Sequence record: NC_048731.1
Length of the DNA stretch: 64,000 nucleotides
Strand: one strand, 5' to 3'
From: Escherichia phage fp01
The notes under the pieces were generated by a model. That model saw only the letters and a list, made by a program, of their open reading frames with translations, was not told the DNA's origin and searched no databases. Shown here piece by piece: positions 9,121 through 64,000 of this stretch. Numbering within the stretch: position 1 is the stretch's first letter; every line of letters begins with the position of its first letter. Made by a program: the position numbers and the translations under genes.

Positions 9121-9124
9121 ATGT

Positions 9125-10158: not shown

Positions 10159-10208
10159 TACATAACCCTTTGCTACCCATCCACCATATCGGAATTATAA
10201 AGTGGTTA

Positions 10209-10237
10209 TTGACATTTTCGCCGCTTAGGTATATACT
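10209..10237 (+). promoter_or_regulatory. near-consensus sigma70 promoter inside the ligase spacer
   Basis: TTGACA (10209-10214), 17-nt spacer, TATACT (10232-10237). Confidence 0.5.
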
Positions 10238-10299
10238 ATTATCATTCAGTTGAGGGATAGAAAGTTATGGCGAGGGTAAGCAAAGTTAGTTAAAATTGT

Positions 10300-10335
10300 A
10301 GTTGCTAAATGCTTAAATACTTGCTATAATATTTA
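10300..10335 (+). promoter_or_regulatory. T5-type early promoter
   Basis: -35 TTGCTA (10302-10307), 17-nt spacer, extended -10 TGCTATAAT (10322-10330), then ATAAATTGATAAGGAAG leader. Confidence 0.6.
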
Positions 10336-10357
10336 TATAAATTGATAAGGAAGAAAT

Positions 10358-11140
10358 TTGATGAAAATCGAAATTCCAACACAATGTCCCTCTTGTGGTT
10401 CTAAGCTAGATCTTGTCAACGGACAATTATTCTGTCGGAATAAGTCCAACTGTCCAGCGCAATCAAGTAAGTTAATTGAGAACTTCTGTACAAAAATGAA
10501 GTTAAAGGGCTTTGGCCCAAAAACTATTGAGAAGCTGGAGCTGACGAAGATTTCAGAACTATTTTACCTAACCGAAGAAGATTTGGTTAGAGCCGTGGGT
10601 AGCAAGGTTGCCGCTAAGTTAATTAGCGAATTAAATACTAAAGTTCGCGGAGACATTGACTTTGGTTCAGTTCTCGGTTCTTTAGGAATCCCTCTAATAG
10701 GAGAGGTTGCAGCAAAGAAATTATCCCAAAATTGCACTAGCTTCCACGATGTGAAGGCTGACGGCAAGGCTGGAGAAAATTATAAAGCCTGGCTAAATTC
10801 CCCACAAGGCAGGGATGTTATCGAACTACCGTGGAAATTTTCAACCGGTATTAAGGGCACTAAAGCTAATATCATCATTACAGATGAATTAGTTGCCCAG
10901 CCAAATGGAATCGCGGTATGTATTACCGGATCTTTGCAAGATTTTGCAAATAGAACGGATGCAACAAACTATTTAGAAGGTCTAGGATATACGGTTAAGA
11001 AATCCGTTACCAAAGACGTCAAATACCTGATCTGTGAGGATGAATCAAAACGTTCTTCCTCATCTTATAAGAAAGCCGAAACGAATGGGATAGAAATCCT
11101 GTCGATTAAAGAACTATTGGAGAAAAATAATAATGTCTAA
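10358..11140 (+). CDS. ligB: NAD-dependent DNA ligase, C-terminal subunit (Zn finger, HhH, BRCT)
   Basis: Starts with Cys4 Zn finger CPSCGSKL...CRNKSNCPAQ, then Gly-rich HhH-like segments and BRCT-like C-terminus. Confidence 0.8.
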   Translation: MMKIEIPTQCPSCGSKLDLVNGQLFCRNKSNCPAQSSKLIENFCTKMKLKGFGPKTIEKLELTKISELFYLTEEDLVRAVGSKVAAKLISELNTKVRGDIDFGSVLGSLGIPLIGEVAAKKLSQNCTSFHDVKADGKAGENYKAWLNSPQGRDVIELPWKFSTGIKGTKANIIITDELVAQPNGIAVCITGSLQDFANRTDATNYLEGLGYTVKKSVTKDVKYLICEDESKRSSSSYKKAETNGIEILSIKELLEKNNNV

Positions 11141-49582: not shown

Positions 49583-50064
49583 TACTTCTTACCTCCAGTA
49601 GCTAGGGAAGTAATTAAGTCCATGTAGTTTTGATCCCCAGCTCCAGCAATAATATTATTCTGGATGTTGGTCTGATTGGCTGGAGTACGGGCTGCTGCCT
49701 TCACTTTCTCCAGTTCTACCATCATTTTCATTTCTTCCATCTTCATCTTGTGTGCCTTCCAGAGAATATCCATAATATCCTGGTCAGAACCCATGCCGGT
49801 TTCTTCTAGCTCCTCTAGTTTACGCTTGATAACTTCATCCAGAACACCAAATAAACGATCTCTGTTACGGAAACCACTCTCCATAAAAATATCATTTAAG
49901 TAGTTCTTAACTTCACTACGATTCATAATATCTCGAAAAGCAATTTCGGACATCCCAAGACTACGTGCGGCAGAAGGCACATCGCTGCCGCACTGTAAAT
50001 AAGCTTCAATCACATCCATCCCTTCAGGGGACATAAGATCTGGTACTAATACATCATTTGCCAT
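49582..50064 (-). CDS. putative terminase small subunit
   Basis: 160 aa, N-terminal HTH-like [17 protein letters not shown], coiled-coil C-terminus; immediately upstream of large subunit. Confidence 0.45.
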
Positions 50065-50074
50065 ATTTCCTCCT

Positions 50075-51832
50075 TTAGGTAAGGCGTTGAACTGTTACTC
50101 TTAATCTAGGTAGGAAAACCGCACTACCTAAACTTACGTGCATAACTACCCCTAACTCTACATTTCCATTTCCTAGATTTTTAACTGTATATGTGAAACT
50201 ATTTCTACTTAGTGCATTATTAGGTGTGTATCTAAATGCAGATGTAGTATGAAATGGTACTAAGTAACCTACAGGTAATGTTAAAATCTGGTGGAATATT
50301 GCATCTCCATTACTATAGCTATAAGCCCTTCTTCCCTGCACCTGAAATACACCGTTATTCCATGTATTAGCCGGAACACCAGCACAATTAAGATTACCAG
50401 ATATAACTTCAGTAGTAAGAATAACGGTAGCATTACCTCCTGGAATTCCTAGTCCAATAGTAGATAGAGCCACGTATCTGTCTCCAGTTCCGGGGTAGTA
50501 AGGGGTAATATCATCCCCCATGTAAGAACTACCAACATTTCCACTAAAAAGTCTCAGAGGAACTGAAGAAGGCCCCCAAACAACACCATGTTCATTACCA
50601 ATAGTATTATTACTTGAGTTTACGTACCATTGCTTACCCGCTCCGAATTTGTAAATACTAATTTGAGACTTAGCCCCTCCATAGTCTACGGGAGACCATA
50701 AACTTCCATTACTAGAGCCTACAAGTTCGCACCTTGCAGTGGTATCTCCAAAGGCTCCAGTGTACGCTGCGTTATTTCCGACGTATTCCATATCTGGCCT
50801 ATAGCCTAAGTTACCAAAAGCATTCTGGTTAATAAACTTATATCCAGTATTCGGTAAACTAACCCCTTTTATAGTAAAATTAGAGGGGGAGATAAGAATA
50901 TCTGAACCAGTAAAAGGATTACCAGAGATACCCATATTACCATTAGAATACCTCAGATTAAGTACATACCAAATAACCTTAGTAGGAGTTATGTTATACC
51001 AATCCTGTAATATTGTAGCATTACCAGATTGATTAGCTAAATTAGTTGTAGAACCCCTACAAACAAATCTGTTACCTCCATCGTGGTACATAGTATTTAC
51101 GCTACCAGGAAGACCTTGTCTTACCCCGCCATACCCACGTATGTTAGAGCTACAAACATAGAACCAATCGTGTCCTCTGTGTGCTGATCCTAAAGGAGAC
51201 ATCCATCCCGGATCCCAGTAATATGGATTATTACCATCTATAGGTACTGTACTACTATTAGTAGGAAAACCCAGCTGTGCAAAAGCTTCTGCAACAGTAA
51301 TACCTACTGGAGCTCCTGCACCTGGCCTAACTATACCATGATAAGTACTATGTAGGGTGGTCCCACCAGTACCATTTCTAGAGATAGATTCTTCATGCCC
51401 TATAGATGGGTTATAGTTATATGTGCCAGATGCCAGGCTATTACCAAATGCAAATCCACTAGTTTGGGAAACGCTAGCAAAAGATCTAAAAGGATCTGCT
51501 TGAGTGGCAACTATAGTTTGACCTACTTTACTCTGAGTACCATTAAGAAAAGCCCTATGAGTACCATTAATCTCAATAGCAGTTAGTATAACTCTACCTG
51601 GGTCATTGGATTTAATATTTATTATGTCAGAGGGCATCTGACATACAAAAAACCCATTTCCAGCATTTCCTAACCCGGCCTCATAAGTACCATCAACTAG
51701 GACAAATGGCATATCACTATGAAAAATACTATTGGCATTTGGACTATAGTGACGATTAATGTCACCCCCAGATTCAGTATTTAAAGATAGTACGGTCTTA
51801 CCATCGCTATATTTTCCAGCGAAAAAACCCAT
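50075..51832 (-). CDS. putative receptor-binding tail protein (pb5-like)
   Basis: 585-aa Gly/Asn/Ser/Tyr-rich beta-type protein next to a divergent lipoprotein gene, the arrangement of T5 oad/llp. Confidence 0.5.
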
Positions 51833-51857
51833 ATAATCTCCTATTATAAAAATGTAT

Positions 51858-51890
51858 TTGCTTTCATCCCTCTATTTTGCTATAATAGAT
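51858..51890 (+). promoter_or_regulatory. T5-type early promoter for the lipoprotein gene
   Basis: -35 TTGCTT (51858-51863), 17-nt spacer, -10 TATAAT (51881-51886), then AGATTCATAAATTAGAAATGGAGAG leader. Confidence 0.6.
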
Positions 51891-51917
51891 TCATAAATTA
51901 GAAATGGAGAGATAAAT

Positions 51918-52184
51918 ATGAAAAAGTTTGTGATTGCACTAGTTGCCGCAGTTATGTTATCTGGTTGTGCACCTGCTCCCAAACCATTTTGTACTGGATT
52001 TGTAAAATCTTTTGGTGGTGCGGGAGAAGAACATTACGGTCTCAAGATTCAAAAAGTTCGTATTAAGGGAGATCGCTTCCCAGTAGTACAGCTCCGTACT
52101 AAGTTTGGGTGGTGGGATCTCAGTCAGTTTGACCTTAAATATGGTGATTGTAAATTTAAACTAGAGCAATCTAACTACCTGTAA
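51918..52184 (+). CDS. llp: superinfection-exclusion lipoprotein (Llp-like)
   Basis: Signal peptide with lipobox LSGC; small size; divergent from the receptor-binding gene; own early promoter. Confidence 0.6.
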   Translation: MKKFVIALVAAVMLSGCAPAPKPFCTGFVKSFGGAGEEHYGLKIQKVRIKGDRFPVVQLRTKFGWWDLSQFDLKYGDCKFKLEQSNYL

Positions 52185-52359
52185 TTAGTATAAAGCAAAA
52201 AGACATCCAAGTAAACTAAATTTTTTATTTTTTGGATGGTATATTGGCAGAAACCACTATGCAAGAAAAGTAGAAGTCCTTCTAGGAAGTCACGAGTATG
52301 GTTGGTTATGCACAAACTATAAAATATTCCAAATACAACATTTACGGGGCACGAAAGTT

Positions 52360-52488
52360 ATGTCAAATAAAAGAAAGAGCAGACGCGGAGAAGTGTATGA
52401 TAGCTGGATAAATAGTTTTGGGTTCGGAACTATCTTATTCTTTATTTTCGTAGGTTTTTGGTTAGCAGCTATGGCGGGGTGGATTTAA
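52360..52488 (+). CDS. small membrane peptide (42 aa)
   Basis: C-terminal hydrophobic helix ILFFIFVGFWLAAMAGWI; stop overlaps next start (TAATG). Confidence 0.35.
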   Translation: MSNKRKSRRGEVYDSWINSFGFGTILFFIFVGFWLAAMAGWI

Positions 52489-52592
52489 TGGGAGTAGTAA
52501 TTATTGTTTTACTAATTATTGTAATTCTAGGGCAATGTGTCTTGGATAACCACTTAGCTCGTATTGAACGTAAGCTGCGGGAATATAAATAA
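52488..52592 (+). CDS. small membrane peptide (34 aa)
   Basis: N-terminal hydrophobic helix GVVIIVLLIIVILG; TAATG overlaps on both sides. Confidence 0.35.
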   Translation: MGVVIIVLLIIVILGQCVLDNHLARIERKLREYK

Positions 52593-52837
52593 TGTTTAGT
52601 ATTATAATTGCTTTTATTATCGGGATACTCGCGGGAGTTTTCGGGACGACTGCGGCAATCAACAAGCATCGTAAATATATTGCGGGAGTGACGCGGGAGA
52701 TTGCGGAAAGGGAGCGGAAGTTTGACGAGAAACGTGCGGAGTTTGAGCGAGAGTGGTCGGATGGATCTCGGGCGTCGCGGAAGAGATTCCGTGAGTTCAG
52801 GCCAGAACACAGGTTTGATGACCCTTCTATGCGCTAA
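52592..52837 (+). CDS. small membrane protein with charged Arg/Glu-rich tail (81 aa)
   Basis: N-terminal TM helix FSIIIAFIIGILAGVFG then highly charged tail. Confidence 0.4.
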   Translation: MFSIIIAFIIGILAGVFGTTAAINKHRKYIAGVTREIAERERKFDEKRAEFEREWSDGSRASRKRFREFRPEHRFDDPSMR

Positions 52838-52947
52838 TTTGACTTTTGCCAAATTTCATAAGATTACACATGGAGGTGTGCCCAGTGGGTTGGGGGAGAA
52901 TACTTAGTCTGCTAACCGCCACCCCCGTTACTATTACCTTGCTAACT

Positions 52948-52986
52948 GTTTCATCCTGTAACCATTTTAATTACAGGATGAAACTA
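52948..52986. promoter_or_regulatory. perfect hairpin downstream of dmp-like gene
   Basis: gtttcatcctgtaa-ccatttta-ttacaggatgaaac, 14-bp perfect stem; no clear U-tract. Confidence 0.4.
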
Positions 52987-53001
52987 TGTCAACTTTAATT
53001 A

Positions 53002-53736
53002 TTACGCAACTTTTAATTTCTCAATATATTGTTGCGGGCTGCAACTATATTCTGCGCGTTCTTCCTCGGTCATACTTTCCCAACATAATTTCAAACGATC
53101 GGCTAGGAACTGATAATCATTATCATCCTCGAGGGATTCATCAATAAAGGTTCCGCCTATCAATGCCACGCCGATTGATAGAATATCATTAACGGCTTGC
53201 GCATCTAGCGTTTTAAATCCATATGACGCAGCCGCTGATAATACACCTTTATGATCATCAATCATTGTAAAATCAGCGTTCGGATATAGCTGTTTAAATA
53301 ATTCAAAGTAATAACTTTTGTATACTGCGTCCTTGCTGTGGTATATCTCGCTAACCTTATCAGCCTCAAAATATTTATGCAGTGTATCGCGGGAAAATAC
53401 ACGGATATTACTATCACCACGCCCGCGCAATCCTTGTTTGCGCAAATAATAATAATCCGACTTGCTCATCAGCCGAGCGGTGCAAATAATGTTTAAAGTA
53501 TTTGAGTCATTCATACATTGGCGCATATATTCCACCAAAGGTAATAAGGTGTCTTGCATTATTAAATCATGTTTACACGCTTCATTTTTATACTTATTTA
53601 AATTTAAATTCCCGTCGCTATCAAAGCAAGGCGCTACACGATGGAAAGAATTAATGATAGTGCCGTCCAGATCCCAAATCATGACGCGGGAAATATGCGG
53701 GAAATTACGGGAAATATTCATAATAGCTTTATTCAT
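53002..53736 (-). CDS. dmp: HAD-family phosphatase, 5'-deoxynucleotidase (Dmp)-like
   Basis: HAD motif I IWDLDGTIINS, motif II-like ICTARL, motif IV-like MIDDHKG; 244 aa; location in pre-early region next to A1-like gene. Confidence 0.5.
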   Translation of the reverse strand: MNKAIMNISRNFPHISRVMIWDLDGTIINSFHRVAPCFDSDGNLNLNKYKNEACKHDLIMQDTLLPLVEYMRQCMNDSNTLNIICTARLMSKSDYYYLRKQGLRGRGDSNIRVFSRDTLHKYFEADKVSEIYHSKDAVYKSYYFELFKQLYPNADFTMIDDHKGVLSAAASYGFKTLDAQAVNDILSIGVALIGGTFIDESLEDDNDYQFLADRLKLCWESMTEEERAEYSCSPQQYIEKLKVA

Positions 53737-53815
53737 TTGTTACGTTCTCCATTAAAGGGATGTAGTTTATCCAGCACTGCCCGCTATTTATAAGCGGGCA
53801 ATAATAAATCAACTA

Positions 53816-54223
53816 TCAAAGACCATAAGCCAAAGCATCGGCGATAAAACTAATATCTTCGCCGGATATATGGGAACGAATACCCGCGCAGATATACACC
53901 TTTGCGCTTGATAGCTGATCATCAAAGCAAGCCGGACAAGGCGCGACAACTGCAAACGCAAGGCCAGCTTTCACGGCGTCAATGATAATCGTTTCTTGTT
54001 TCACCGTATCAACATAAACGCCTGCGGCCTTGATGTAACTACTTGCGCGGCCTTGCGTATAGGCGAAAGTCGTGATCTGTAGCGCCTCATTAAATTCGAT
54101 TAAATCATCAACAACGTGACCGGCCTCAACGTGATACCGCTCACCATTAGAATAAACCAGAACGATTGAGGATTGAGCGCGATCGAATGGAATATTTTGC
54201 TTTTTCATATTTATAAACTCCAA
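53816..54223 (-). CDS. hypothetical pre-early protein (A2-position)
   Basis: 135-aa ORF between A1-like and dmp-like genes; contains HVE...PCPAC. Confidence 0.4.
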   Translation of the reverse strand: MEFINMKKQNIPFDRAQSSIVLVYSNGERYHVEAGHVVDDLIEFNEALQITTFAYTQGRASSYIKAAGVYVDTVKQETIIIDAVKAGLAFAVVAPCPACFDDQLSSAKVYICAGIRSHISGEDISFIADALAYGL

Positions 54224-54274
54224 TTAATTTAATAAGGGGCATAAGCTGGAAGTATTTCCAGCTTATAAATTTAA

Positions 54275-55954
54275 TTATGCGAAAAATTTGCCGTTTTTAA
54301 AGTCAATCAAAGTGCGTTGCCCGTTGGCGTATGTAATTAAATGCGTTTGCGTCCAGCTTGACGCGCCAACGTTGTAACCCATATCCAGACTACCAGCTAC
54401 GCCAGCGGTATAAACGCCGCCATAAATGCTAGCGGTGTGAGTGTGTCCGGTGTTTAACTTGCCCAATTTCTTAAACTGCTTAGGATTGCCACGGCTGCCG
54501 TTTATGCCGTTATGACCGTGTACACCACACTCAATGCCTGCAATTTTGAATGATTGATCAGTCGTTAGGAAAATCGCGTTAAACTCGCAACCTGCGACGC
54601 TACGCAGCGCATAATCTAGCACGTTGAAAGTATCGTCATGATTACCGATTGCCGCGTAAATTGCAGCATTAAGGCGGTGATATAGTTCCGCATTGGCTGG
54701 GTCGTCTTTAATGTTAGCATTACGATCATCAAGCCAACGAGATAGCGCCAAATCGTGATTCGATTCAACAATGATCGTTTGACTAAAATCACGCTCCATC
54801 GATTCCAGCACGCGCCCGGTATCGATAAGATCATCAATAACCTTATCCCGTCCGGCTGCATACTGTTTCGCTAGAAATACACCGGAAGCGCGGTTATGAT
54901 GATTGCGCGATGTAAAATCATGCACGTCATGGATAAACTGATATTTAGGCTTGAGAATATCAAGCAAACTATTGTCGCCAGCCCATGACGCTGCGGCGCA
55001 CTCCTCATCTAATTTTTCGGCGTGAATGTCACCATACTGTAAGCCTAAAACATGCCCCGATGTTTCATAGCATCCGGCGGGAGTAGCGCAAACATTCAGA
55101 TCATAAAACACCCCGCTTTCATCCATTGTTTCAAGCTGGCGAACAAAAAATTCACCGTCCTCATCGAACTCGACAATCAGCGCACCAAAGTTATGAAGTG
55201 CTTCCGCTTTCTGTCCTGCTTTCTGCTGAATGTAGTTTTTGAGTGTTGCCGTTCCGGTTGAATACATGCGGCGCACCACTTCACCTTTTAAAGCTGGGAC
55301 GCTTTCGGCGGTGATTTTAGCGTGACCAATTGCCAGACCCTCGATATTTAAAGCCGTTGCAGTTTCTGCAAATCCAGAAAGCGGATAATCTGCGGTTGGC
55401 AAAACATTAATTTCAGCCATGAAAGCAAAACGGCGGTTATTTAAAAACACGTTTTTGCTGCAAATATACTTATCAAAAGCGGAATCATATTTGATTCCGT
55501 CAGCACCTTCCCCATTTTGGAATCCGTTTTTATTATAAATATACTTAGAAACAAGCAAATCAGCGCCGATAAATTTGGCATATTGTTCAAGCGAGGACAA
55601 AAAGTTTTTATGCGGGAAAGTATTATTCTGAATCGATGTAATAATAAAGCGTTTGCCTTGTTTTACTTCCCACTGTTCCACGGTACTAGAAACAATTCCA
55701 GCCGCTTCGGGGCGCTCATCGTTTTTAATGGCTTTTACCGCTTTCGCCGCTTTCGGTTTAGCTGGTTTATTTGCTTCCAGCCAGTCGCAGATAGCGGTTG
55801 AATGTTTTGCAGTATCGTAAACCGCTTTTGATATATCGTCGCAGACCTCCAATTTAGTAGCGCGCAGACGTTTACCATAGAAATTAAAGTCAGCGGCTAG
55901 TTTCAGGATAGCGGTTTGTTTTTCTGCGGAAAAAATCATAGTAATAAACTCCAT
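54275..55954 (-). CDS. A1: A1-like pre-early protein with metallophosphoesterase-type nuclease motifs
   Basis: 559 aa; calcineurin-like motifs GDIHAE and GHTH; GC-rich composition; position matches T5 A1. Confidence 0.55.
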   Translation of the reverse strand: MEFITMIFSAEKQTAILKLAADFNFYGKRLRATKLEVCDDISKAVYDTAKHSTAICDWLEANKPAKPKAAKAVKAIKNDERPEAAGIVSSTVEQWEVKQGKRFIITSIQNNTFPHKNFLSSLEQYAKFIGADLLVSKYIYNKNGFQNGEGADGIKYDSAFDKYICSKNVFLNNRRFAFMAEINVLPTADYPLSGFAETATALNIEGLAIGHAKITAESVPALKGEVVRRMYSTGTATLKNYIQQKAGQKAEALHNFGALIVEFDEDGEFFVRQLETMDESGVFYDLNVCATPAGCYETSGHVLGLQYGDIHAEKLDEECAAASWAGDNSLLDILKPKYQFIHDVHDFTSRNHHNRASGVFLAKQYAAGRDKVIDDLIDTGRVLESMERDFSQTIIVESNHDLALSRWLDDRNANIKDDPANAELYHRLNAAIYAAIGNHDDTFNVLDYALRSVAGCEFNAIFLTTDQSFKIAGIECGVHGHNGINGSRGNPKQFKKLGKLNTGHTHTASIYGGVYTAGVAGSLDMGYNVGASSWTQTHLITYANGQRTLIDFKNGKFFA

Positions 55955-56033
55955 TAAAGGGATAAAAAACGTTTGTTATTGGCAATATTGCCAGATATAA
56001 CGCCTTGAATAATAGGCGTTATAATTTGCAACA

Positions 56034-56231
56034 TTAATTTAAAGGCATAAGGCTAGAACTAACACCACAAACAACGGCGGCAATAAAACAAATCAGACCT
56101 AAACGCTTCGCTAACTTAGATTTGCGTTTAAAATAATACGAATCTAAGTCATTTTGAAAATATGCGAACAATAACGAGGCCGCCATAATAAATAGTCCTA
56201 GAATCAGCGATTCAGTAGGGTAAAAGATCAT
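56034..56231 (-). CDS. small membrane protein
   Basis: Two hydrophobic helices; start set to internal ATG with RBS TGGAG. Confidence 0.35.
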   Translation of the reverse strand: MIFYPTESLILGLFIMAASLLFAYFQNDLDSYYFKRKSKLAKRLGLICFIAAVVCGVSSSLMPLN

Positions 56232-56288
56232 TTTAATAACTCCAGTTAAAGGGAAATTATAGTGGGGAATAATCCCCACTAGTTAAAT

Positions 56289-56696
56289 TTATTCACCTGC
56301 GGCCTGTTTTACTTCATCGGCAACGCCTAACAACTGCGCCACGGCGTCCAGCGTTTCCAGTTTCGCGCTTTCAAGGCTTGCCAGATCATCGGCGTCTTTG
56401 ATAATGCCGGAATCAATAGCGTGTTTTGCAATTACTCGCACATAATGAGCCTTGCGGATTGAACTGCCGCCGCCAACTTTGCGCGGCTTATCGCTTTTTT
56501 GATAGGCTTTCGCGCTGGTCAATTTTGAGCGAACGGATACGGGAGAAGTCGCGCCCACTGCCTTTGCAATCTCTTTCAGGCCGTCGCTATTTGCAAATTC
56601 TAAACCGTTTTCGTTGATTAACTGCTGATACAGGGTAACAGCTTTTTGGGTGTTGTCTTCATTCCAAGTGAATTTTGCGGTTTTTGCGTTAGTCAT
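56289..56696 (-). CDS. hypothetical pre-early protein
   Basis: 135-aa ORF, E. coli-like codons, RBS GGAG. Confidence 0.45.
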   Translation of the reverse strand: MTNAKTAKFTWNEDNTQKAVTLYQQLINENGLEFANSDGLKEIAKAVGATSPVSVRSKLTSAKAYQKSDKPRKVGGGSSIRKAHYVRVIAKHAIDSGIIKDADDLASLESAKLETLDAVAQLLGVADEVKQAAGE

Positions 56697-56794
56697 GGTA
56701 AAAACTCCAATTAATTTAATTTAAGGGATTAGATTAACTAATGTTAATCGTTATAACCCTCCTTATTCTAGGAGGGTATAAAGTTAACACTAAT

Positions 56795-57046
56795 TTATAA
56801 TACAGCTTCCCATTTTTCGTTGCGTTGAACAACCTTTACAACATCGCCTGATTTAACGCGAACGTTATAAACGGTTTTGCCGTTGTTACTGCGTTCTGTT
56901 TCAGCGTATACCGCGTCGATTGTATCGAACGGCATAAGCGCCGCGCCTTTAATACGTTCGGCCTTTCCGGTTAATTCATCCGTTTTAGTAACGAAAGGAA
57001 TAAAAACGGATTGACCAATTTTAGGCGTGGTAATAACGTTTTGCAT
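56795..57046 (-). CDS. hypothetical pre-early protein
   Basis: 83-aa ORF with RBS GGAG. Confidence 0.4.
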   Translation of the reverse strand: MQNVITTPKIGQSVFIPFVTKTDELTGKAERIKGAALMPFDTIDAVYAETERSNNGKTVYNVRVKSGDVVKVVQRNEKWEAVL

Positions 57047-57246
57047 AATATAGACTCCAGTTTATTCAGTGGATTGTTCCGCATTACCTGCTAGAAAATA
57101 ACAGGTAATAAGAAAAAATCCGCTCGCCATTATAAAATCAAATTAAAGAACTCCACGCGGGCCGCTATATCCCAGTTAGGGGGCGAGACACATTATGGTA
57201 AGTGCCGACCGTCAAATTGTATCAAGTTATCGCTCTTTTCGAACTG

Positions 57247-57271
57247 GGTATATCTTAAAAGCCCATCGGCT
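57247..57271. repeat. left arm of a 25-bp inverted repeat flanking a two-gene cassette
   Basis: GGGTATATCTTAAAAGCCCATCGGC; reverse complement with one mismatch at 57670-57694. Confidence 0.8.
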
Positions 57272-57277
57272 AGGTTG

Positions 57278-57478
57278 TCAAACTATTTTTTGCAGTTTTT
57301 TATGATTTTCCTTCAGGTCAATCATAATATTACGCCAGATCATTTCTAAACCTTGCTGGCGCCCTTTCTTGTACTGCGTGAAGCGGTATTTTACCGATCT
57401 TTGCGCTACTGTCAATAATTTTTTAGTTTCGCTATCCAGTGCCTTGCTAGGTTTACCAGTGATCAATAGAGTTTGCAT
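57278..57478 (-). CDS. hypothetical small basic protein
   Basis: 66 aa, Lys/Arg-rich; start overlaps upstream stop (TAATG). Confidence 0.35.
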   Translation of the reverse strand: MQTLLITGKPSKALDSETKKLLTVAQRSVKYRFTQYKKGRQQGLEMIWRNIMIDLKENHKKLQKIV

Positions 57479-57636
57479 TATTTGAGATCCTCCAAAGCGT
57501 ATAAACCTTTGCCATCATTGCAGATTATTACTGCTTCTGAATAGGTGGCATGATATTCGTTTGCCGCTTTTACCCATTGCTCGATCTTTTCGATCGTGTC
57601 GTGGGTAGCTGGATGATCGTTATATATTGTTTGCAT
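57478..57636 (-). CDS. hypothetical small acidic protein
   Basis: 52-aa ORF found by hand (below the track length cut-off); RBS AAGGA 9 nt upstream; translationally coupled to the next gene. Confidence 0.3.
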   Translation of the reverse strand: MQTIYNDHPATHDTIEKIEQWVKAANEYHATYSEAVIICNDGKGLYALEDLK

Positions 57637-57669
57637 ATCGTCGATTCCTTATAATGAATAAGTTTACCG

Positions 57670-57694
57670 CCGATAGGCTTTTAAGATATACCCA
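57670..57694. repeat. right arm of the 25-bp inverted repeat
   Basis: GCCGATAGGCTTTTAAGATATACCC; embedded in a local palindrome agtttaccgccg...cggcggtaaact. Confidence 0.8.
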
Positions 57695-58148
57695 ATTTTT
57701 AAAGAGCGCGGCGGTAAACTCCCCGCCGTGTAGTTCGTCATTGCCGCCCTACGAGATAAATAATAACAAACAACGAAAAAGGCGCAACCTTATATTTGTA
57801 AAGAAATGTAAAGACAAAATCCACCGGACACCGTGCGGCGATCTGGGCGCGACGGCCTAAAATTAAAAGAAACGGGCGCGCGAATACCACAAAACACAGC
57901 AGATAAGCAAGTAATTTTTTCATTTATATTTGCTTTGCCCTACTTGACAAAATCTAAAAAGCTCGTGGCGACGATAAACGACGTGGCCCCTTATGATTGG
58001 ATGGCTAAAAACTTTACTGCGTTCTGGGGCGTTTCAGGCCGCTTATTTTCGACTTAACAAATCATTAACAAACGCAAAATTGAAAAATAGTTGGAAAAGG
58101 TCTTGACTTTTAAAAATCAAGACCAAATGACTTAATTTATTAAATTAA

Positions 58149-58667
58149 TTAATTGACAATTCCAAATTCAGCTTTTTTAGTTTCAAGCCATAATAATAAC
58201 TCTTGTAAATCATAACCTGACTTACTAACACGCTTGTTAGTAATAGGATTCTTAATTTGAGCAGTCAAATAGTCACGCCCGTAACTATCACGGGGGCGAA
58301 CTTTATTAACGTAAATGTTTTTAGGGATACCATTAGCACGCTTACAGTTTTCATACTCACTAGGAGTACGATTATAATTATTCTGCGAACTATCAACCGC
58401 GCGAAGATTCCAGATGTTATTATTACGAGTGTTACGATCGATATGATCAATCATTAGCTCGCTATCTATACCGCCATTCATTATACAAAAGATAATTCTA
58501 TGTACTTTTAACTGTCCCATGCCTAATAGTTCAACTTGCCAATAATTACCATTTAAACCACCTGCGACGGCGTGATCTTCCCGCCAACGTAAAAATGATA
58601 ACGCTGTTTCATCATAATAAAAGTAACTATTAAAAAGATCATAATCTATATCTTTATATTTACCCAT
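58149..58667 (-). CDS. HNH homing endonuclease
   Basis: HNH signature MIDHIDRNTRNNNIWNLRAV (H-x-D...N...N); AT-rich codons unlike the GC-richer neighbours. Confidence 0.65.
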   Translation of the reverse strand: MGKYKDIDYDLFNSYFYYDETALSFLRWREDHAVAGGLNGNYWQVELLGMGQLKVHRIIFCIMNGGIDSELMIDHIDRNTRNNNIWNLRAVDSSQNNYNRTPSEYENCKRANGIPKNIYVNKVRPRDSYGRDYLTAQIKNPITNKRVSKSGYDLQELLLWLETKKAEFGIVN

Positions 58668-58931
58668 TGTTATAGTTTCCTTATGTTATTAATTTAATCT
58701 CTATTATATTATATCAAAACAATTAGCAGACTAGCTAATGAGTTTTTCAGGTTTAATTAGCAGACTCATAATCACTCTAAAAACCTATTAGCCAACTAAC
58801 TATATTTTATTATATAATAACTGTATAAATTAGTTAGTGAGAACCACTATCATTTAAGTTACCCACAGCCTTATACATTTTGTAAAATAATTTGACACAA
58901 TAGGCGGCGATATGAGGGCTTTTACACAGAC

Positions 58932-58940
58932 TTATCCACA
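58932..58940 (+). promoter_or_regulatory. consensus DnaA box
   Basis: TTATCCACA exact match to the DnaA box consensus. Confidence 0.5.
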
Positions 58941-58950
58941 GGTTATTCCA

Positions 58951-58966
58951 CTGTATAAATATACAG
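58951..58966. promoter_or_regulatory. LexA (SOS) box-like palindrome
   Basis: CTGTATAAATATACAG fits CTGT-(AT-rich 8)-ACAG. Confidence 0.4.
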
Positions 58967-59232
58967 GGTAAAAAGGTAGTGTTAACAACTGCAATCAATT
59001 TTAAGCGGCCTAAAACGCTTTCTAACGAGCTAAACGCTGCGGGGTAGTATTAAAGTAAAGCCTTCACCCGTCGGCCTGGTGGCTTCGCCGTGTCTTGCTC
59101 TTTACTACACCGCTGCGCGGTTAGCATAAAACTAGGTGTTAGGCAAGGAAAATAAAAAAGTAAAATAATCTTTGCCTATGCTAGAAAATTACCCTTATCA
59201 TTCACTCACCGATTAACGAGGGAGGCCAACAA

Positions 59233-60219
59233 ATGCGGCTATATAAACCAGATAACGCAACCGTCTTAAAAGGTGCGCTGCGTAACCTGCTGGACGGTAG
59301 CAGAACAACCAGCATTAAACATTTTGTTTTCAATATTGAAACTATTCATCAAAACTTTTTTGATGATTATGATGCTTACAATATGAATAGTTTTCTACCG
59401 TTATATAAGCAAGGGGCAACGCTTGTTTTATATAATCAGGATTATCAATTACTTACTAGTAGGGGGCCGGATACTGATTTCATAGTCGTAAAAGGCAACA
59501 CAGTAAAAGCCTATGATACTGGGGCGGGCTTAGAAGTTTTTTCAATAGAAAACTATGAAGCCAATGATAATGATCTTTATGACGTAGAAAATTTTCTTGA
59601 TTCATTTTGGCGTTATTTATCAGTTGGCTGGAATCGGTCGGATTCTGATGGGTATCGTTTTGCGGCTATAATGGCCTTTGATGATAACGGTAATTTTTTG
59701 CTACCGTCGGAGTTATATAATCGGGTATATGAAGGCGATATTGTTGACGCCGGATTTTCTTTCGAAAGGGAAGAAAGTATTGACAGTATAGAAAAACATG
59801 CTGTAAATTCTAACACTAAAAGCGTTCACACTCAAACTACTGAAAACAAAGGAAAAAATGCCATGACCAAGATCGCTAACATCGTTGCCGCCAATAAGTC
59901 TGCCGTTGTAAACGCTGCAAAACTGGAAGCGGGTAAAATTGCACTGACTCAAATTACGAAAGTAGCGGCTAAAAAAGCACCGTTCATGATCAAAGGCTAT
60001 ATTGATACGCCGATTGGTCGTGTAGTGATCGCTAACCTGCTGAGTGTAGCGGTTGACCAGTACGCCCCGAGTAACCAGAAAGCGAAAGCGGTAGCAGGGG
60101 CGGCTATGGAAGCGGCGATGTTGGAAATGGTGCAAAGTTTTAACATCGCTGAGATGATTGATGAAATGGTAAAAGGTATCGATATTTCTACTTTCACCAC
60201 TAACACCGAAAGCGAGTAA
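59233..60219 (+). CDS. hypothetical pre-early protein (328 aa), two-part composition
   Basis: RBS GAGGGAGG; C-terminal third Ala-rich with E. coli-like codons. Confidence 0.45.
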   Translation: MRLYKPDNATVLKGALRNLLDGSRTTSIKHFVFNIETIHQNFFDDYDAYNMNSFLPLYKQGATLVLYNQDYQLLTSRGPDTDFIVVKGNTVKAYDTGAGLEVFSIENYEANDNDLYDVENFLDSFWRYLSVGWNRSDSDGYRFAAIMAFDDNGNFLLPSELYNRVYEGDIVDAGFSFEREESIDSIEKHAVNSNTKSVHTQTTENKGKNAMTKIANIVAANKSAVVNAAKLEAGKIALTQITKVAAKKAPFMIKGYIDTPIGRVVIANLLSVAVDQYAPSNQKAKAVAGAAMEAAMLEMVQSFNIAEMIDEMVKGIDISTFTTNTESE

Positions 60220-60283
60220 TAATAACTAGCGGGGTAACAATCCCCGCTTTACTATTCCCTTGTTAATTAATAGGAGGCTAATT

Positions 60284-60601
60284 ATGCAGCTTAACAAAAA
60301 AATGCTAGAACAATTGCGGGGTAGAATCCAGCGCGATGACTACCCTCACATTAATTATTCTTCGGAAGTAGTAGACACTGCCGATTCATGGAAAAAAGCA
60401 GGTTACCCCTATGTATGGCAACATGCAGAAAGCGCAAACGGATTCCATGCCTTTCGTGATTTAGGTCATGGAAAACTTTGCGTTTTTAAAGGTGAGTTAT
60501 TAATAGGAGTATCAGAATCGGAAGTAATCACGGATGAGGTTGTATTCTTAGACAATGACCAATATGAAACAGGCAATCAGTTTTATTTTCCCGCTAATTA
60601 A
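60284..60601 (+). CDS. hypothetical protein
   Basis: Start at ATG 60284 behind TTAATTAATAGGAGGCTAATT; the track start at 60260 lacks an RBS. Confidence 0.4.
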   Translation: MQLNKKMLEQLRGRIQRDDYPHINYSSEVVDTADSWKKAGYPYVWQHAESANGFHAFRDLGHGKLCVFKGELLIGVSESEVITDEVVFLDNDQYETGNQFYFPAN

Positions 60602-60615
60602 TAGGAGGCTAATTA

Positions 60616-61110
60616 ATGGCTGAAGAAAAATATGGCTTCTCACTGGGAGAAGTGAGCACGGCAAAACATGATATGATCATTTTAGTCGATTGTCATACTG
60701 GCTATTGCGGGGAAGGGAATACCGAGGAATATTTTGTTCCTGCTGGTACGGATCTAGACGCTTTCGCTCAGGAAATGGCTATTGATAATGCTTCTCGTTT
60801 TGGTAGCGATGGCTATGAAGACGAGGAAACTGGCGAATGGTATGAAAATGAAAACGTATATGCGAGCCTTTATCATTATCAATTAAGTAAATCCGGCACA
60901 TATGTAAACGGCGGCGATCCTATTAATTCCGTCATGAAATTAATTATTAAACACGGTGGCGTCGAGATAATTGATAACAAAGCGGTAATATATGCAAACC
61001 GATTAAAACAGCTTGTTTATATCCCTGATAGTACCCGATGGGATGAATACGCCGTTTTGCATGACGAATTGAAACGATGTTTCAATGTTGAAGCCTTACA
61101 AGTAGTCTAA
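60616..61110 (+). CDS. hypothetical acidic protein
   Basis: Preceded by the same TTAATTAATAGGAGGCTAATTA element; 164 aa. Confidence 0.45.
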   Translation: MAEEKYGFSLGEVSTAKHDMIILVDCHTGYCGEGNTEEYFVPAGTDLDAFAQEMAIDNASRFGSDGYEDEETGEWYENENVYASLYHYQLSKSGTYVNGGDPINSVMKLIIKHGGVEIIDNKAVIYANRLKQLVYIPDSTRWDEYAVLHDELKRCFNVEALQVV

Positions 61111-61123
61111 TGTAAAGTTTTGT

Positions 61124-61152
61124 AAAGGTCGCCTTTTATGGTGGCCTTTTTT
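61124..61152 (+). terminator. putative terminator followed by an extended -10 element
   Basis: aaaggtcgcc-ttttat-ggtggccttt (G-U wobble stem) then TTTTTTGCTATAATG. Confidence 0.4.
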
Positions 61153-61216
61153 GCTATAATGCCTTTACACCGTTTGAGGACGGTTGAAAATTTTCCCAAA
61201 AATTTGGAGGCTTAAA

Positions 61217-61447
61217 ATGGTTGCTTATTCTTCTTCTGACGCTCTTTTCACTGGGAAAGGCTGGGTATCTAATCGCTGGATTATTCAAGAAATGGTGCAA
61301 GAATACGGCATTGCTAAAACTTACACTACCATTCAGGCGCTTTATGATAATGATCAAATCGATCAGCAAACGGCGGGCTTTTTGCTGGATACCCTGAAAG
61401 CGGAACACTGTACCAAAAAACAAGCGGCAAAAATTGTTTTAATGTAA
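61217..61447 (+). CDS. hypothetical protein
   Basis: ATG at 61217 with RBS TGGAGG; 76 aa. Confidence 0.35.
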   Translation: MVAYSSSDALFTGKGWVSNRWIIQEMVQEYGIAKTYTTIQALYDNDQIDQQTAGFLLDTLKAEHCTKKQAAKIVLM

Positions 61448-61496
61448 TTAATAACGGGGCGTTACTTTCGCCCCACTAACTAGGGGAGTAGTACAA

Positions 61497-61679
61497 ATGG
61501 TTATTTTTCGAGCTGTTCTAGCAGGTATCTTGGGCGCTATTTTGACCCTTTTCGCCACCGCGTATGGTATTCAGGATTCCTATTGCGGTTTGGTAAATAC
61601 AAAACCAATGGTTACTATTGGCGCTGGCATTGCTGTATTTTCTTATCTGCTAGGCTGCATGACTAGTAAAGGAGAATAA
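61497..61679 (+). CDS. small membrane protein
   Basis: 60 aa with two hydrophobic helices; RBS GGGGAG. Confidence 0.35.
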   Translation: MVIFRAVLAGILGAILTLFATAYGIQDSYCGLVNTKPMVTIGAGIAVFSYLLGCMTSKGE

Positions 61680-61681
61680 AA

Positions 61682-61894
61682 ATGATCCGCAACGTTTCTC
61701 TTGCACGTTCGAAAGGCTTTAAGCTGGTGGATGCTAACACGTTCGAGCGTCTTGATTGTAAAATCGAATATGTAGCACGTAACAAAAATGCCTTTCGTGT
61801 TACCGAGAAAAAATTTGACAAGCGCGGCAACGTGATCGCTGAAACGGTTAAACACTTTGCCACCTTTTACGCTGCGTTTCGTGGGGTGTTATAA
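61682..61894 (+). CDS. hypothetical small basic protein
   Basis: 70 aa; starts 3 nt after previous stop. Confidence 0.35.
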   Translation: MIRNVSLARSKGFKLVDANTFERLDCKIEYVARNKNAFRVTEKKFDKRGNVIAETVKHFATFYAAFRGVL

Positions 61895-61895
61895 A

Positions 61896-62240
61896 ATGGT
61901 TATTTATGAAGGCAATCGTTTTGTTGCTAATTGCCGCCCGGCATTGTTAGCAAACTATTTAAATCAGCTTTCGCCAGCTTATAAGGGCGTTATTAATATT
62001 TATGAGGGCAAGGCACATTATAAAATTAATGCGGTCGTTGCCCGTGAACTAGCATTTCAATTTTTGACCTTTGCATCTTGTGACGTTCAAGTTATGGGTG
62101 AAGCATTAATTGCGGAAAATGAAGAGGATTTTATTAATATTTTCCGCAAGGTATGCACCGAGCGCCTGATAATGAAAGGCGCGTATATTCAATCCACTGC
62201 GGATAGTATTGAAACAGCGTTTCGAAAGGTGGCACAATGA
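61896..62240 (+). CDS. hypothetical protein
   Basis: ATG at 61896 directly after upstream stop; 114 aa. Confidence 0.35.
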   Translation: MVIYEGNRFVANCRPALLANYLNQLSPAYKGVINIYEGKAHYKINAVVARELAFQFLTFASCDVQVMGEALIAENEEDFINIFRKVCTERLIMKGAYIQSTADSIETAFRKVAQ

Positions 62241-62395
62241 AAAAGTTTTTAATAGCTGGCATGTTTCCTTTGTTGCCTTATGTAATTTGCTGGGCTTTAT
62301 ATGCTCATGGTGCTAGTGTTCCCGGTGTGGCTGCATTTGGTGTATCAGCGGGCTTTCTAGCCGGACTACTAGCAAGCGTATATTTACGCAAGTAA
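62237..62395 (+). CDS. small membrane peptide (52 aa)
   Basis: Hydrophobic throughout; ATGA overlap with upstream gene; found by hand. Confidence 0.3.
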   Translation: MKKFLIAGMFPLLPYVICWALYAHGASVPGVAAFGVSAGFLAGLLASVYLRK

Positions 62396-62414
62396 TTAAC
62401 AACGGAGCGTTATT

Positions 62415-62609
62415 ATGAGCAATAAAATTATTGTAACCAAAACCAGCACAACGGTTGATGTTTTTTACGTGCCCGATACGCCGGAAAACCGACAAGCGGT
62501 CGAGCGTGGGGAATATGATAAAGTGATTTATGATCACGATGGTTATTATCAGTATTTGGTGGATTCATATGGGGAGGAGGAAAAGATCACGCACCGACTA
62601 CCGGACTAA
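62415..62609 (+). CDS. hypothetical small acidic protein
   Basis: 64 aa; RBS ACGGAG. Confidence 0.35.
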   Translation: MSNKIIVTKTSTTVDVFYVPDTPENRQAVERGEYDKVIYDHDGYYQYLVDSYGEEEKITHRLPD

Positions 62610-62650
62610 TAATCACGGGGCGCAACTATCAGGAAGTGCCCCCAATTCTC

Positions 62651-62671
62651 AAATGAGAATGATTCTCATTT
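62651..62671. repeat. perfect 21-bp palindrome
   Basis: AAATGAGAATGATTCTCATTT; related copies at about 63160 and 63220. Confidence 0.7.
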
Positions 62672-62893
62672 GACCGCGCCCGCGATGGTTAGCCTGCTAA
62701 TGGTTAGGGTGTTACGTGTCGCCTTGTGTGATCGTTAGCGAGCTAACTAATTTTCAAGCCTCCTCCAATTTTGCCCTTGTTTTAGTATCCCCACCAAAAT
62801 TAAACGCGTTAGAATGCGTTTGAGGGCGTTTTAGCGGTATATTAGAATTATTCACTGCGTAGGAATACTGTATATTTATCCAGTAGGATAAGC

Positions 62894-62978
62894 TGTGGAT
62901 AAGTCTGTTGATAACGCTTCAAAACGGCTAGGATTTTGTCAAGTCAAATCGTGCTGTTGATAAGTCTGGGGATAACTT
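62894..62978. promoter_or_regulatory. cluster of DnaA-box-like sites
   Basis: TGTGGATAA (62894-62902, exact reverse-complement consensus), TGTTGATAA at 62906 and 62955, GGGGATAAC at 62967. Confidence 0.55.
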
Positions 62979-63007
62979 AAATAATAGTGTTTCTCACTTC
63001 CGTTCTT

Positions 63008-63250
63008 AAATGCGAATCATTATCATTTGCATTCCACTTCCTGAATAAGAATCATTCCACTATCTAAACGATAATCATTCCACTTCCTGAATAATAATCA
63101 TTCCACTATCTAAATAAGAATCATTCCACTATCTAAACGATAATCATTCCACTTTTTAAATGAGATTGATTCTCATTCCACTTTCTAAATGCGAATTATT
63201 ATCATTCGCATTCCGCTTTTTAAATGAGAATGATTCTTATTATCATTCGT
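63008..63250. repeat. about 9 tandem copies of a roughly 23-bp direct repeat (iteron-like)
   Basis: Repeating (A)ATCATTCCACT(A/T)TCTAAA(C/T)(G/A) units. Confidence 0.8.
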
Positions 63251-63255
63251 ATTTA

Positions 63256-63282
63256 GCGCAGAGCAATTGCTCTGCGCTTTTG
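63256..63282 (+). terminator. perfect 22-bp palindrome with T-tract
   Basis: GCGCAGAGCAATTGCTCTGCGC then TTTTG. Confidence 0.55.
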
Positions 63283-63520
63283 TGCAAAACCGACATTGCT
63301 CCACGGGTGTTACGTGCGGGCGTATGTGCAAATCCGACAGGATTTTTGGTAGTGTGCAAATCCGACCCGAAAAATTTTTATAGTGTGCGAATCCGACAAT
63401 GAATTTTTCCAAAAACTCCAGCAATCCGATGCTGCGCATCAATCCTGTGGAATTAACTAGAATATGTGCAAATCCGACATGAGTTTATTTGTGCGAATCC
63501 GACAAGATTTTTGTGACTTC
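63282..63520. repeat. six direct 13-bp repeats GTGCRAAWCCGAC
   Basis: Copies near 63282, 63328, 63353, 63384, 63466, 63490, each followed by an A/T-rich tract. Confidence 0.8.
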
Positions 63521-63529
63521 GATTGGAGG

Positions 63530-63700
63530 GTGTGTGATTGTGTGGGTTTGGGGAGAAGTTGAGAGAGCGAGGGAAAATTAGGGGAGAAGCTAGAGAGGCG
63601 CATGTTTGGTGCGGGGGCACCCGATTTGCGGGGATTTTGGGGAAGAGTTGAGAAGATTTGGGTTAATTTGAGATTAGTGGAGATAAAGTAAAATTTTATT
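63530..63700. repeat. purine-rich G-tract region with three GGGGARRAGYTRGAGA copies
   Basis: ggggagaagttgagaga, ggggagaagctagagag, ggggaagagttgagaag; strong G/A strand skew. Confidence 0.6.
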
Positions 63701-63834
63701 AGCTAAATGGGGCAAAATAGCTTGACAAGTGAAAATTCTTGTGGCTCTAAAAACTCAGGCAATCATGGGCCTTCGGCCCGAAATAATGCTGCCATTTTCA
63801 AGAGATTATGTGTCCATGAAAACTTAGGCAATTG

Positions 63835-63985
63835 TGCAAATCCGACCATAAATTTCTAGAAACACAATGTGCAAATCCGACAGTAAAATCCAGAAATGTG
63901 TTTTCAAAAAATGTTGTCTAGAAATAACCGCCCTCCCCATAACCGCCCTGTATTAAACCGCCTAGTATATGTTCCTAGAAACTTA
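63835..63985. repeat. two further GTGCAAATCCGAC copies followed by four AACCGCC motifs
   Basis: GTGCAAATCCGAC at about 63837 and 63870; AACCGCC at about 63927, 63943, 63957, 63981. Confidence 0.7.
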
Positions 63986-64000
63986 GGAGAACCGCCCACT

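Follow-up and report, generated by a model that had tools for sequence, protein, structure and literature searches.

A probable T5-type terminal repeat carrying pre-early genes, represented by one copy in the genome sequence of Escherichia phage fp01

T5-type phages transfer their DNA in two steps; the pause falls at about 8% of the genome, at the position of a strand-specific nick. To our knowledge, no phages other than T5-like ones combine two-step transfer with an injection stop signal. Bacillus phage SPO1 resembles them in having a long direct terminal repeat that houses its earliest-expressed host-takeover genes, and we know of no sequence relationship between the SPO1 terminal redundancy and the T5-type repeat. 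In T5 (AY543070), the left and right terminal repeats occupy positions 1-10219 and 111532-121750 and represent the first-step-transfer DNA. The repeat of BF23 (OR083247) is 9,743 bp, and its termini were placed with PhageTerm (PMC10644984). For the T5-type repeat, Davison stated as a criterion that dmp, A1, and A2 stand in this order at the left end, transcribed toward the left terminus, and described (bioRxiv 10.1101/866236) the architecture of the injection-stop-signal (iss) region, in which an IRD'-spacer-IRC' element with paired DnaA-type boxes is inverted relative to an upstream IRC-spacer-IRD element.

The DNA analyzed here is a stretch of 64,000 nt (the window) from Escherichia phage fp01 (NC_048731.1), which is T5-like (Tequintavirus-like), the nearest records having about 91% DNA identity. 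Matches to its right-end region occur in 534 phage records, almost all from T5-like phages of Salmonella, Escherichia, and Klebsiella. An original prediction, made from the sequence, proposed that the window crosses into a terminal-repeat-like pre-early segment; the comparisons below support this and point to a repeat of T5 type, with the pre-early gene set in T5 order. We put the probability at about 0.9 that positions 52,879-63,747 (10,869 bp) are the fp01 copy of the T5-type long direct terminal repeat (Demerecviridae, Tequintavirus-like), containing the first-step-transfer (pre-early) DNA and left as a single copy when the two were merged in a circularly permuted assembly. None of this is new biology: T5, BF23, and dozens of relatives have already been described with these genes, boundaries, and repeat architecture. 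For annotators, the use lies in recognizing that the source sequence appears to show a linear genome of about 120 kb in collapsed, permuted form; the coordinates 52,879-63,747 allow the true linear genome to be rebuilt with the pre-early genes counted twice, and the injection-stop region is now marked.

Pre-early genes

Of the 18 ORFs within the repeat, 16 have counterparts by homology in T5 or BF23, arranged in the same order. The leftward block follows the T5 order dmp-002-A1-005-A2-007-hdi-009 plus an HNH gene, and the rightward block then runs from 011 to 017. At the left end, dmp, A1, and A2 stand in this order and are transcribed toward the left terminus, as in Davison's description. The original prediction had noticed dmp-like and A1-like genes to the right of a lipoprotein gene, and the protein comparison confirmed them, with 94-96% identity to T5 for dmp, A1, and A2. 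Pfam gave no match for these three proteins at E up to 0.001, so that they were identified through PHROGs and by comparing them directly with T5.

All genes of the leftward block are on the minus strand. The first, dmp (53002-53736), encodes a predicted deoxynucleoside-5'-monophosphatase with 94% protein identity to T5 dmp, and the alignment shows the HAD-type phosphatase motif DLDGT. It is followed by a T5.002 homologue (53816-54223; 81% protein identity; phrog_4576) and by A1 (54275-55954), the homologue of an essential pre-early protein and a predicted metallophosphatase/nuclease with 94% protein identity to T5 A1 over 556 aa. The A1 motifs GDIH, SNHD, GHNG, and GHTH are intact in the T5 alignment, and the true start is likely the Met at 55939. 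Next come a homologue of T5.005, a small membrane protein (56034-56279; 98% identity over 65 aa; phrog_4820), and A2 (56289-56696; 96% protein identity), whose product is predicted to be the DNA-binding protein needed with A1 for second-step transfer. The block continues with homologues of T5.007 (DUF7177; 56795-57046) and T5.008 (hdi, host division inhibitor; 57278-57478; 89% protein identity), a small pre-early ORF (phrog_21018; 57478-57636), and an HNH homing endonuclease at the position of T5 hegG (58149-58667; Pfam HNH_3). The last is just 57% identical to T5 hegG at the protein level, a difference from T5, as is the absence of T5.003.

A promoter and terminator scan of the window yielded counts mildly above those in shuffled sequences (47 vs 35.7 ± 5.8 and 16 vs 11.7 ± 3.9, respectively). 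Because the counts barely exceed the shuffles, we used the promoter scan only at sites coinciding with an annotated T5 promoter. One such site is a near-consensus promoter inside the hdi homologue (57415-57388, TTGACA-16-TAAAAT), in the interval calculated to correspond to T5 P-H22, which is annotated inside T5.008.

The rightward block, on the plus strand, begins with the T5.011 homologue (59233-60219; 77% protein identity; Pfam DUF7566). Two accessory ORFs absent from T5 follow (60260-61110): one of 113 aa (60260-60601), common to phage DaisyDussoix, and one of 164 aa (60616-61110), 94.5% identical to its BF23 counterpart. The block ends with homologues of T5.012, 013, 014, 015, and 017 (61184-62609; 89-99% protein identity, with PHROG matches), among which a 52-aa ORF stands in place of T5.016, a gene fp01 lacks. 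Most other T5 pre-early ORFs are also present in T5 order.

Injection-stop region

To the right of the coding block lies the untranslated Repeat Region 3 (62610-63747), the iss region, to which the T5 iss feature (9140-10149) maps. It contains an IRD'-spacer-IRC' element of 131 bp (62868-62998) that is inverted relative to the IRC-spacer-IRD element of Repeat Region 2 (58836-58966, likewise 131 bp), the architecture and paired DnaA-type boxes being those described by Davison (bioRxiv 10.1101/866236). Both elements align to their T5 counterparts without internal gaps, and the DnaA-type boxes keep the T5 spacing, the members of each pair being 3 bp apart: the upstream element carries TTTTACACA gac TTATCCACA at 58920-58940, and the inverted element carries pairs at 62894-62914 and 62955-62975. 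The DnaA-box consensus TTWTNCACA shows no window-wide enrichment (10 found vs 7.8 expected), and only the paired arrangement within the IR elements is meaningful among its matches. A scan of 51-64 kb against Rfam at E up to 0.1 found nothing, and a tRNA scan found no tRNA.

Tandem 23/29/35-nt repeats (63030-63248) precede the homologue of the T5 major nick site, which maps from T5 9748/9749 to 63277/63278 (CTGCGC/TTTTG). The sequence is conserved here, CTGCGC being followed by TTTTGTGCAAA, and by comparison with T5 it may be nicked in fp01 as well. Beyond it, six TGTGCRAATCCGAC 14-mers lie inside the repeat (63281-63503), and two further ones lie in the right flank, outside the repeat (63833 and 63868). 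This 14-mer has nine matches at no more than one mismatch, eight of them in the array, vs 0.01 expected. A G-rich, C-poor tract (63505-63700), the most strand-skewed of the window (G 39%, C 6%), adjoins the array and lies within the repeat's final 240 nt. The IRC/IRD inverted pair with its paired boxes, the 14-mer array, and the nick-site sequence are all conserved with T5.

By orthology with T5 and BF23, the left copy of the repeat would enter the cell first, and DNA transfer would pause at the repeat-rich injection-stop region, at about 62.6-63.7 kb. Host RNA polymerase would then transcribe the two divergent pre-early blocks, leftward over 53.0-58.7 kb and rightward over 59.2-62.6 kb. The predicted activities suggest that A1 would degrade host DNA, that Dmp would dephosphorylate the dNMPs released, that hdi would block cell division, and that A1 together with A2 would let the remaining genome enter. 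It is doubtful that the eight-14-mer array and the skewed tract are, instead of a part of iss, a site where terminase or A2 defines the genome end, or alternatively that the termini differ from those of T5.

Boundaries and flanks

In an alignment of seven phages, T5 position 1 and BF23 position 1 share one column, which corresponds to window position 52879. The surrounding junction motif (52830-52900), ...GATTACACATGGAGGTG / TGCCCAGTGGG..., is conserved in all seven and places the equivalent of the cut between 52878 and 52879. This is 123 bp from the dmp stop codon, in agreement with the criterion of about 120 bp beyond the stop. Within 3 nt of position 52879 lie the starts of at least 10 GenBank records, not all of them independent, as T5 homology may have guided the choice of many record ends. 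On the right, the genome ends of T5 (position 121750) and BF23 (position 114544) both align to 63747, where the left repeats of SPC35 and MM-1 also end, as does the SP01 record. A by-eye comparison for a motif common to both termini found nothing convincing.

Homology thus agrees with the original guess that the boundary lies within 52.2-53.0 kb, and the extent then assigned to the pre-early segment, 52200-64000, was too wide: 52,200-52,878 is still unique DNA, and the repeat stops at 63,747. The annotated repeat of chee24 maps to 52986-63540 and that of Kenya-K20 begins at the equivalent of 52912; neither was taken as the best estimate, given that six other phages agree among themselves.

We regard it as improbable that the segment, orthologous to the T5 pre-early region, has its physical termini elsewhere in fp01, so that the repeat would be shorter, longer, or shifted (start about 52,912-52,986, end about 63,540). 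The left annotations of chee24 and Kenya-K20 do differ from T5 by 33-107 nt, and the right end of chee24 by 207 nt; repeat length also varies among relatives, from 9.6 to 10.4 kb. The length variation, however, arises from internal indels and not from moved ends, and both boundary positions are common to T5, BF23 (PhageTerm), SPC35, MM-1, SP01, and NBEco002, the annotated repeats of SPC35 and MM-1 matching both window boundaries within 1 nt. Moreover, the junction sequence is kept in the fp01 window and even in chee24, upstream of its own annotated repeat start. The repeat is 10,869 bp in fp01 vs 10,219 bp in T5, with both boundary sequences conserved between them, and vs 9,743 bp in BF23, with both termini at equal window positions.

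The DNA on either side bears on how the T5-type repeat came to be represented in fp01. Left of 52,879, the window holds late tail genes, pb5, llp, and ORFs like T5.159, T5.160, and T5.162, which correspond to the DNA lying ahead of the right repeat in T5 and BF23. The receptor-blocking lipoprotein gene llp (51918-52184, plus strand; Pfam lipobox and Cor-type PHROG matches) lies in unique DNA, and its product has 98.9% protein identity to the BF23 receptor-blocking protein. The small membrane-protein ORFs (52360-52837, plus strand), assigned by DNA alignment to T5 110.8-111.5 kb, are the last unique genes before the repeat; T5.161 is absent, and the 81-aa ORF at 52592-52837 shares 88% identity with T5.162 and 93% with the BF23 homologue. 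T5 and fp01 share the flanks on the llp side and the post-repeat side, and they differ in the receptor-binding and lipoprotein module to the left of the repeat, which is not T5-like in fp01.

Right of the repeat, 63748-64000 corresponds to the unique DNA located after the left terminal repeat in T5 (10220-10436) and BF23 (9744-9991), a continuation of Repeat Region 3 recovered in single alignments crossing the repeat end; it includes a GC hairpin (63767-63779). In the T5-type layout, the early genes also come after the left copy. The alignment to the T5 left-repeat region continues past 63747 to 63964, whereas that to the T5 right end stops at 63747. Because both unique flanks adjoin it, the repeat is present as a single copy (collapsed or permuted) in the source, and a whole-window repeat search found no second copy in the 64,000 nt. 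The suspicion that the assembly had collapsed or permuted the terminal redundancy is borne out by this one copy, flanked by the DNA preceding the right repeat and the DNA following the left repeat. A collapsed single copy is ordinary for T5-like genome assemblies. By orthology, the repeat would be present twice in fp01 virion DNA, once at each genome end, and would be seen once after a circularly permuted assembly merged the copies; a junction in a replicative concatemer would also be expected to look like this.

Escherichia phage Lindwurm (OK143207; 110,040 bp, 'circular') is the nearest relative, at 91.3% over 89% of 14 kb, and shares the single-copy arrangement of pb5, llp, repeat, and early region, but lacks the HNH gene and the 113-aa ORF. 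BF23, with about 87% DNA identity to fp01, likewise lacks that ORF and carries no HNH endonuclease in the interval from Repeat Region 1 to Repeat Region 2.

GC composition and strand orientation

A composition shift had also been proposed as a sign of the segment. The rise in GC is real (40.4% in 52201-64000 vs 38.8% in 1-52200), but it is small and has no distinguishable change point when likelihood ratios are compared with those of shuffled 500-bp blocks. The window's best single change point falls at 43.9 kb; shuffles reach its likelihood ratio 15% of the time, and they reach the ratio at 52.2 kb 38% of the time. Composition was therefore rejected as a boundary marker, the top change point being at 43.9 kb and not significant, and the shift is too weak to serve as evidence for the repeat.

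The proposed change in gene orientation does exist, but it is located inside the repeat, at about 58.7-59.2 kb, and not at its edge. The first 5.8 kb of the repeat are on the minus strand, the same as the late genes to the left, and the divergent point separates nine genes on the minus strand from nine on the plus strand. The lipoprotein gene and the three small ORFs (51.9-52.8 kb), on the plus strand, are outside the repeat.

A horizontally acquired island or an assembly chimera, instead of a terminal repeat, is a hardly credible source of the GC rise and the strand change. In its favor, the segment is 1.7 points richer in GC than the rest of the window, and some accessory ORFs (the HNH endonuclease, 60260-60601, and 60616-61110) vary between relatives. 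Against it, the shift in GC gives no significant change point, the T5 and BF23 repeats are of similar GC (40.0% and 40.9%), 83 records covering at least 80% of the region are colinear with the entire block and its two flanks, and merging two repeat copies would produce exactly the joins seen at either end.

Boundaries of the probable terminal repeat

The original prediction held that the DNA right of a lipoprotein gene crosses into a terminal-repeat-like pre-early segment comparable to that of T5, with the boundary probably within 52.2-53.0 kb. In T5, the repeats as annotated in AY543070 occupy 1-10219 (left) and 111532-121750 (right). From 52592 the window follows the right-end region of T5 in one unbroken alignment that passes into its right repeat, and the T5 left end aligns with the window from T5 position 15; multiple alignments place T5 position 1 at window 52879, inside the predicted interval. 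The 9,743-bp repeat of BF23, which was set with PhageTerm (PMC10644984), starts in this same alignment column, in SPC35 and MM-1 the right repeat begins one base later, and at least 10 further records start no more than 3 nt away. The junction, ...GATTACACATG-N3-GTG / TG..CA.TG..., is kept in all seven aligned phages. At the other side, the T5 right-end alignment ends at window 63747 (T5 121750) and the T5 left-repeat alignment extends to 63964 (T5 10436); BF23 position 114544 likewise corresponds to 63747, and its left-side alignment extends to 63996. In SPC35 and MM-1 the left repeat stops at the equivalent of 63745-63747, which is also where the SP01 and NBEco002 records end. There were two outliers, Kenya-K20, whose repeat start corresponds to 52912, and chee24, whose annotated repeat corresponds to 52986-63540. 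Because the termini of T5, BF23, SPC35, MM-1, SP01, and NBEco002 converge, and the junction motif survives in chee24 upstream of where its repeat is annotated to start, we assign the predicted repeat to 52,879-63,747 (10,869 bp).

Two further features lie close to these ends. A near-consensus promoter-like site on the minus strand (52964-52992; TTGACA-17-TAAAAT, 11/12) occupies the stretch separating the dmp stop codon from the left terminus, is directed outward to the genome end, and overlaps an inverted repeat (~52952-52986) with the look of a terminator for dmp; its -35 position reads TTGACA in the window but TTGAAA in T5. A GC hairpin, GGGCC-TTC-GGCCC, lies 20 nt past the repeat end (63767-63779), and T5 has the identical sequence.

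The composition and orientation cues that had pointed to the boundary hold only in part. The expected rise in GC is present (40.4% in 52201-64000 vs 38.8% leftward) but is unusable as a boundary signal: the best single change point in a likelihood-ratio scan is at 43.9 kb, and it is not distinguishable, as 500-bp block shuffles match the 43.9-kb score in 15% and the 52.2-kb score in 38% of trials. Given that the T5 and BF23 repeats have 40.0% and 40.9% GC, against a BF23 genome mean of ~39.2% (PMC10644984), the slight excess may be a family trait. As for the change of orientation, the plus-strand genes that reach to 52837, for the lipoprotein and the small ORFs, sit in unique DNA; the repeat itself opens with 5.8 kb of genes on the minus strand, the late-gene strand, and a divergent switch to the plus strand follows at 58.7-59.2 kb.

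A single copy in a permuted layout

It had also been suspected that the assembly collapsed or permuted the terminal redundancy, and the window bears this out. In T5 and BF23, the DNA seen here left of 52,879 precedes the right repeat, and that seen right of 63,747 follows the left repeat; a repeat search of the window found no second repeat copy. Since both unique flanks adjoin one copy and the window holds no second, its sequence indicates that the source must carry the two repeats merged into one and be circularly permuted. Lindwurm, whose deposited record is circular (110,040 bp), shows the same single-copy layout, and Davison notes that such repeats are often mishandled by assemblers. The original prediction holds in substance, and the finding is an ordinary one; duplication of the segment at the virion ends of fp01, with its termini exactly at these positions, would be expected from orthology with T5-like phages. 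The practical value lies in giving precise coordinates for the repeat and in showing the source to be a collapsed, permuted assembly.

A megablast search with 50,000-64,000 matched 534 phage records, nearly all T5-like and from Escherichia, Salmonella, and Klebsiella. The top match was Escherichia phage Lindwurm (91.3% identity, 89% of the query), and in 83 records at least 80% of the query was covered in one colinear place.

Gene content and anatomy of the repeat

The dmp-like and A1-like genes noted right of the lipoprotein gene are both confirmed, on the minus strand: dmp (53002-53736) and A1 (54275-55954) each share 94% protein identity with T5, A1 across 556 aa and with the metallophosphatase-type motifs GDIH, SNHD, GHNG, and GHTH all intact. 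A2 (56289-56696, minus strand) is 96% identical to its T5 counterpart. Homologues of T5.002, 005, 007, 008 (hdi), hegG, 011, 012, 013, 014, 015, and 017 follow the T5 order. The window differs from T5 in having neither T5.003 nor T5.016 and in carrying two additional accessory ORFs, one at 60260-60601 (96% DNA identity with phage DaisyDussoix) and one at 60616-61110 (94.5% identity to a BF23 protein). The 70-aa T5.014 homologue (61682-61894) matches a PHROG labelled 'endonuclease nicking abasic sites generated by host Ung', whereas the literature credits this activity to 'gene 015'; the conflict is probably a gene-numbering mismatch among T5 annotations.

The repeat is ~72% coding, with nine genes on each strand. 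Its untranslated stretches (57637-58148, 58668-59232, and 62610-63747) correspond to the three repeat regions described in T5 (Davison, bioRxiv 10.1101/866236), and an HNH endonuclease gene lies between regions 1 and 2, as it does in T5, Shivani, and FFH1. A 40-nt inverted repeat (57231-57270 / 57669-57708, 88% complementary) flanks the pair made up of hdi and a small ORF, in the leftward pre-early promoter region, and is probably the IRA/IRA' pair of T5 Repeat Region 1 (Davison). The 131-bp IRC-spacer-IRD element (58836-58966) recurs in the opposite orientation as IRD'-spacer-IRC' (62868-62998), and both align to the two T5 elements without internal gaps. DnaA-type boxes are paired, 3 bp apart, in both elements: TTTTACACA-gac-TTATCCACA at 58920-58940 and, on the opposite strand, TGTGGATAA-gtc-TGTTGATAA at 62894-62914 and TGTTGATAA-gtc-TGGGGATAA at 62955-62975.

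Downstream of these elements, tandem repeats of 23, 29, and 35 nt span 63030-63248, and the sequence at which T5 has its major nick (T5 9748/9749) corresponds to window 63277/63278. The annotated T5 injection-stop-signal (iss) feature (9140-10149) corresponds to window ~62.6-63.68 kb. The sequence TGTGCRAATCCGAC has nine matches at no more than one mismatch (0.01 expected by chance), eight of them on one strand at 63281-63881, of which six precede the right boundary at 63747 and two lie beyond it; this array probably corresponds to a family of direct repeats that Davison describes for T5 Repeat Region 3. A G-rich, C-poor tract at 63505-63700, across which T5 aligns, shows a stronger GC skew than any other part of the window. 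The last ~240 nt of the repeat (G 39%, C 6%, skew +0.73) are the window's most G-over-C skewed stretch, and the tandem-repeat zone at 63000-63200, 300 nt upstream, is the window's most negative (-0.54).

Orthology and the cited literature together suggest how this DNA would work. The left repeat copy would enter the cell first, transfer would halt at iss with ~8% of the genome inside, and the pre-early genes would be expressed from strong host-type promoters. A near-consensus promoter site (57415-57388) lies inside hdi, in the interval calculated as equivalent to T5 P-H22. Degradation of host DNA requires A1 and needs no other pre-early gene; no pre-early genes besides A1 and A2 are essential, and these two are required for second-step transfer; dmp raises virulence, and division is inhibited by hdi (bioRxiv 10.64898/2026.04.02.716235). 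That DnaA-type boxes act in the transfer pause is Davison's hypothesis.

The remaining window

Elsewhere the window is arranged like the right half of a T5 genome. Large plus-strand genes, which by position match the early genes of T5, extend up to ~24 kb, and late genes occupy the minus strand from ~25 to 52 kb, the last being those for the large terminase subunit (name taken from the chee24 annotation) and the receptor-binding protein. A tRNA scan found no tRNA genes in the window.

In the receptor module (50075-52184), the lipoprotein gene (51918-52184, plus strand; Pfam lipobox match, Cor-type PHROG) encodes a protein with 98.9% identity to the receptor-blocking protein of BF23. The receptor-binding gene (585 aa) has ~90% DNA identity to chee24 but only ~78% to BF23, and is unalignable to T5 pb5 along most of its length. 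On sequence comparison, the module is a mosaic of a BF23-like lipoprotein beside a receptor-binding gene closer to chee24. This mosaicism, and the poor match to pb5, suggest a receptor specificity other than FhuA, possibly BtuB-type.

A family of ~60-nt direct repeats of the form AAAAATTTAnTTGC...N17...TATAATA..., which are near-identical strong sigma-70-type promoters, lies upstream of plus-strand genes at 2733, 6276, 7303, 9116, 10291, 14305, 18784, 18886, and 51847, the last copy (51847-51907) being immediately upstream of the lipoprotein gene. Finally, a 41-base run of N (28627-28667) sits inside a 21-nt periodic array (28511-29010; 13 copies detected) within the minus-strand late-gene ORFs 27266-28522 and 28480-29169, whose reading frame it splits; it is probably a masked stretch or an assembly gap in a repetitive tail-fibre-type gene.
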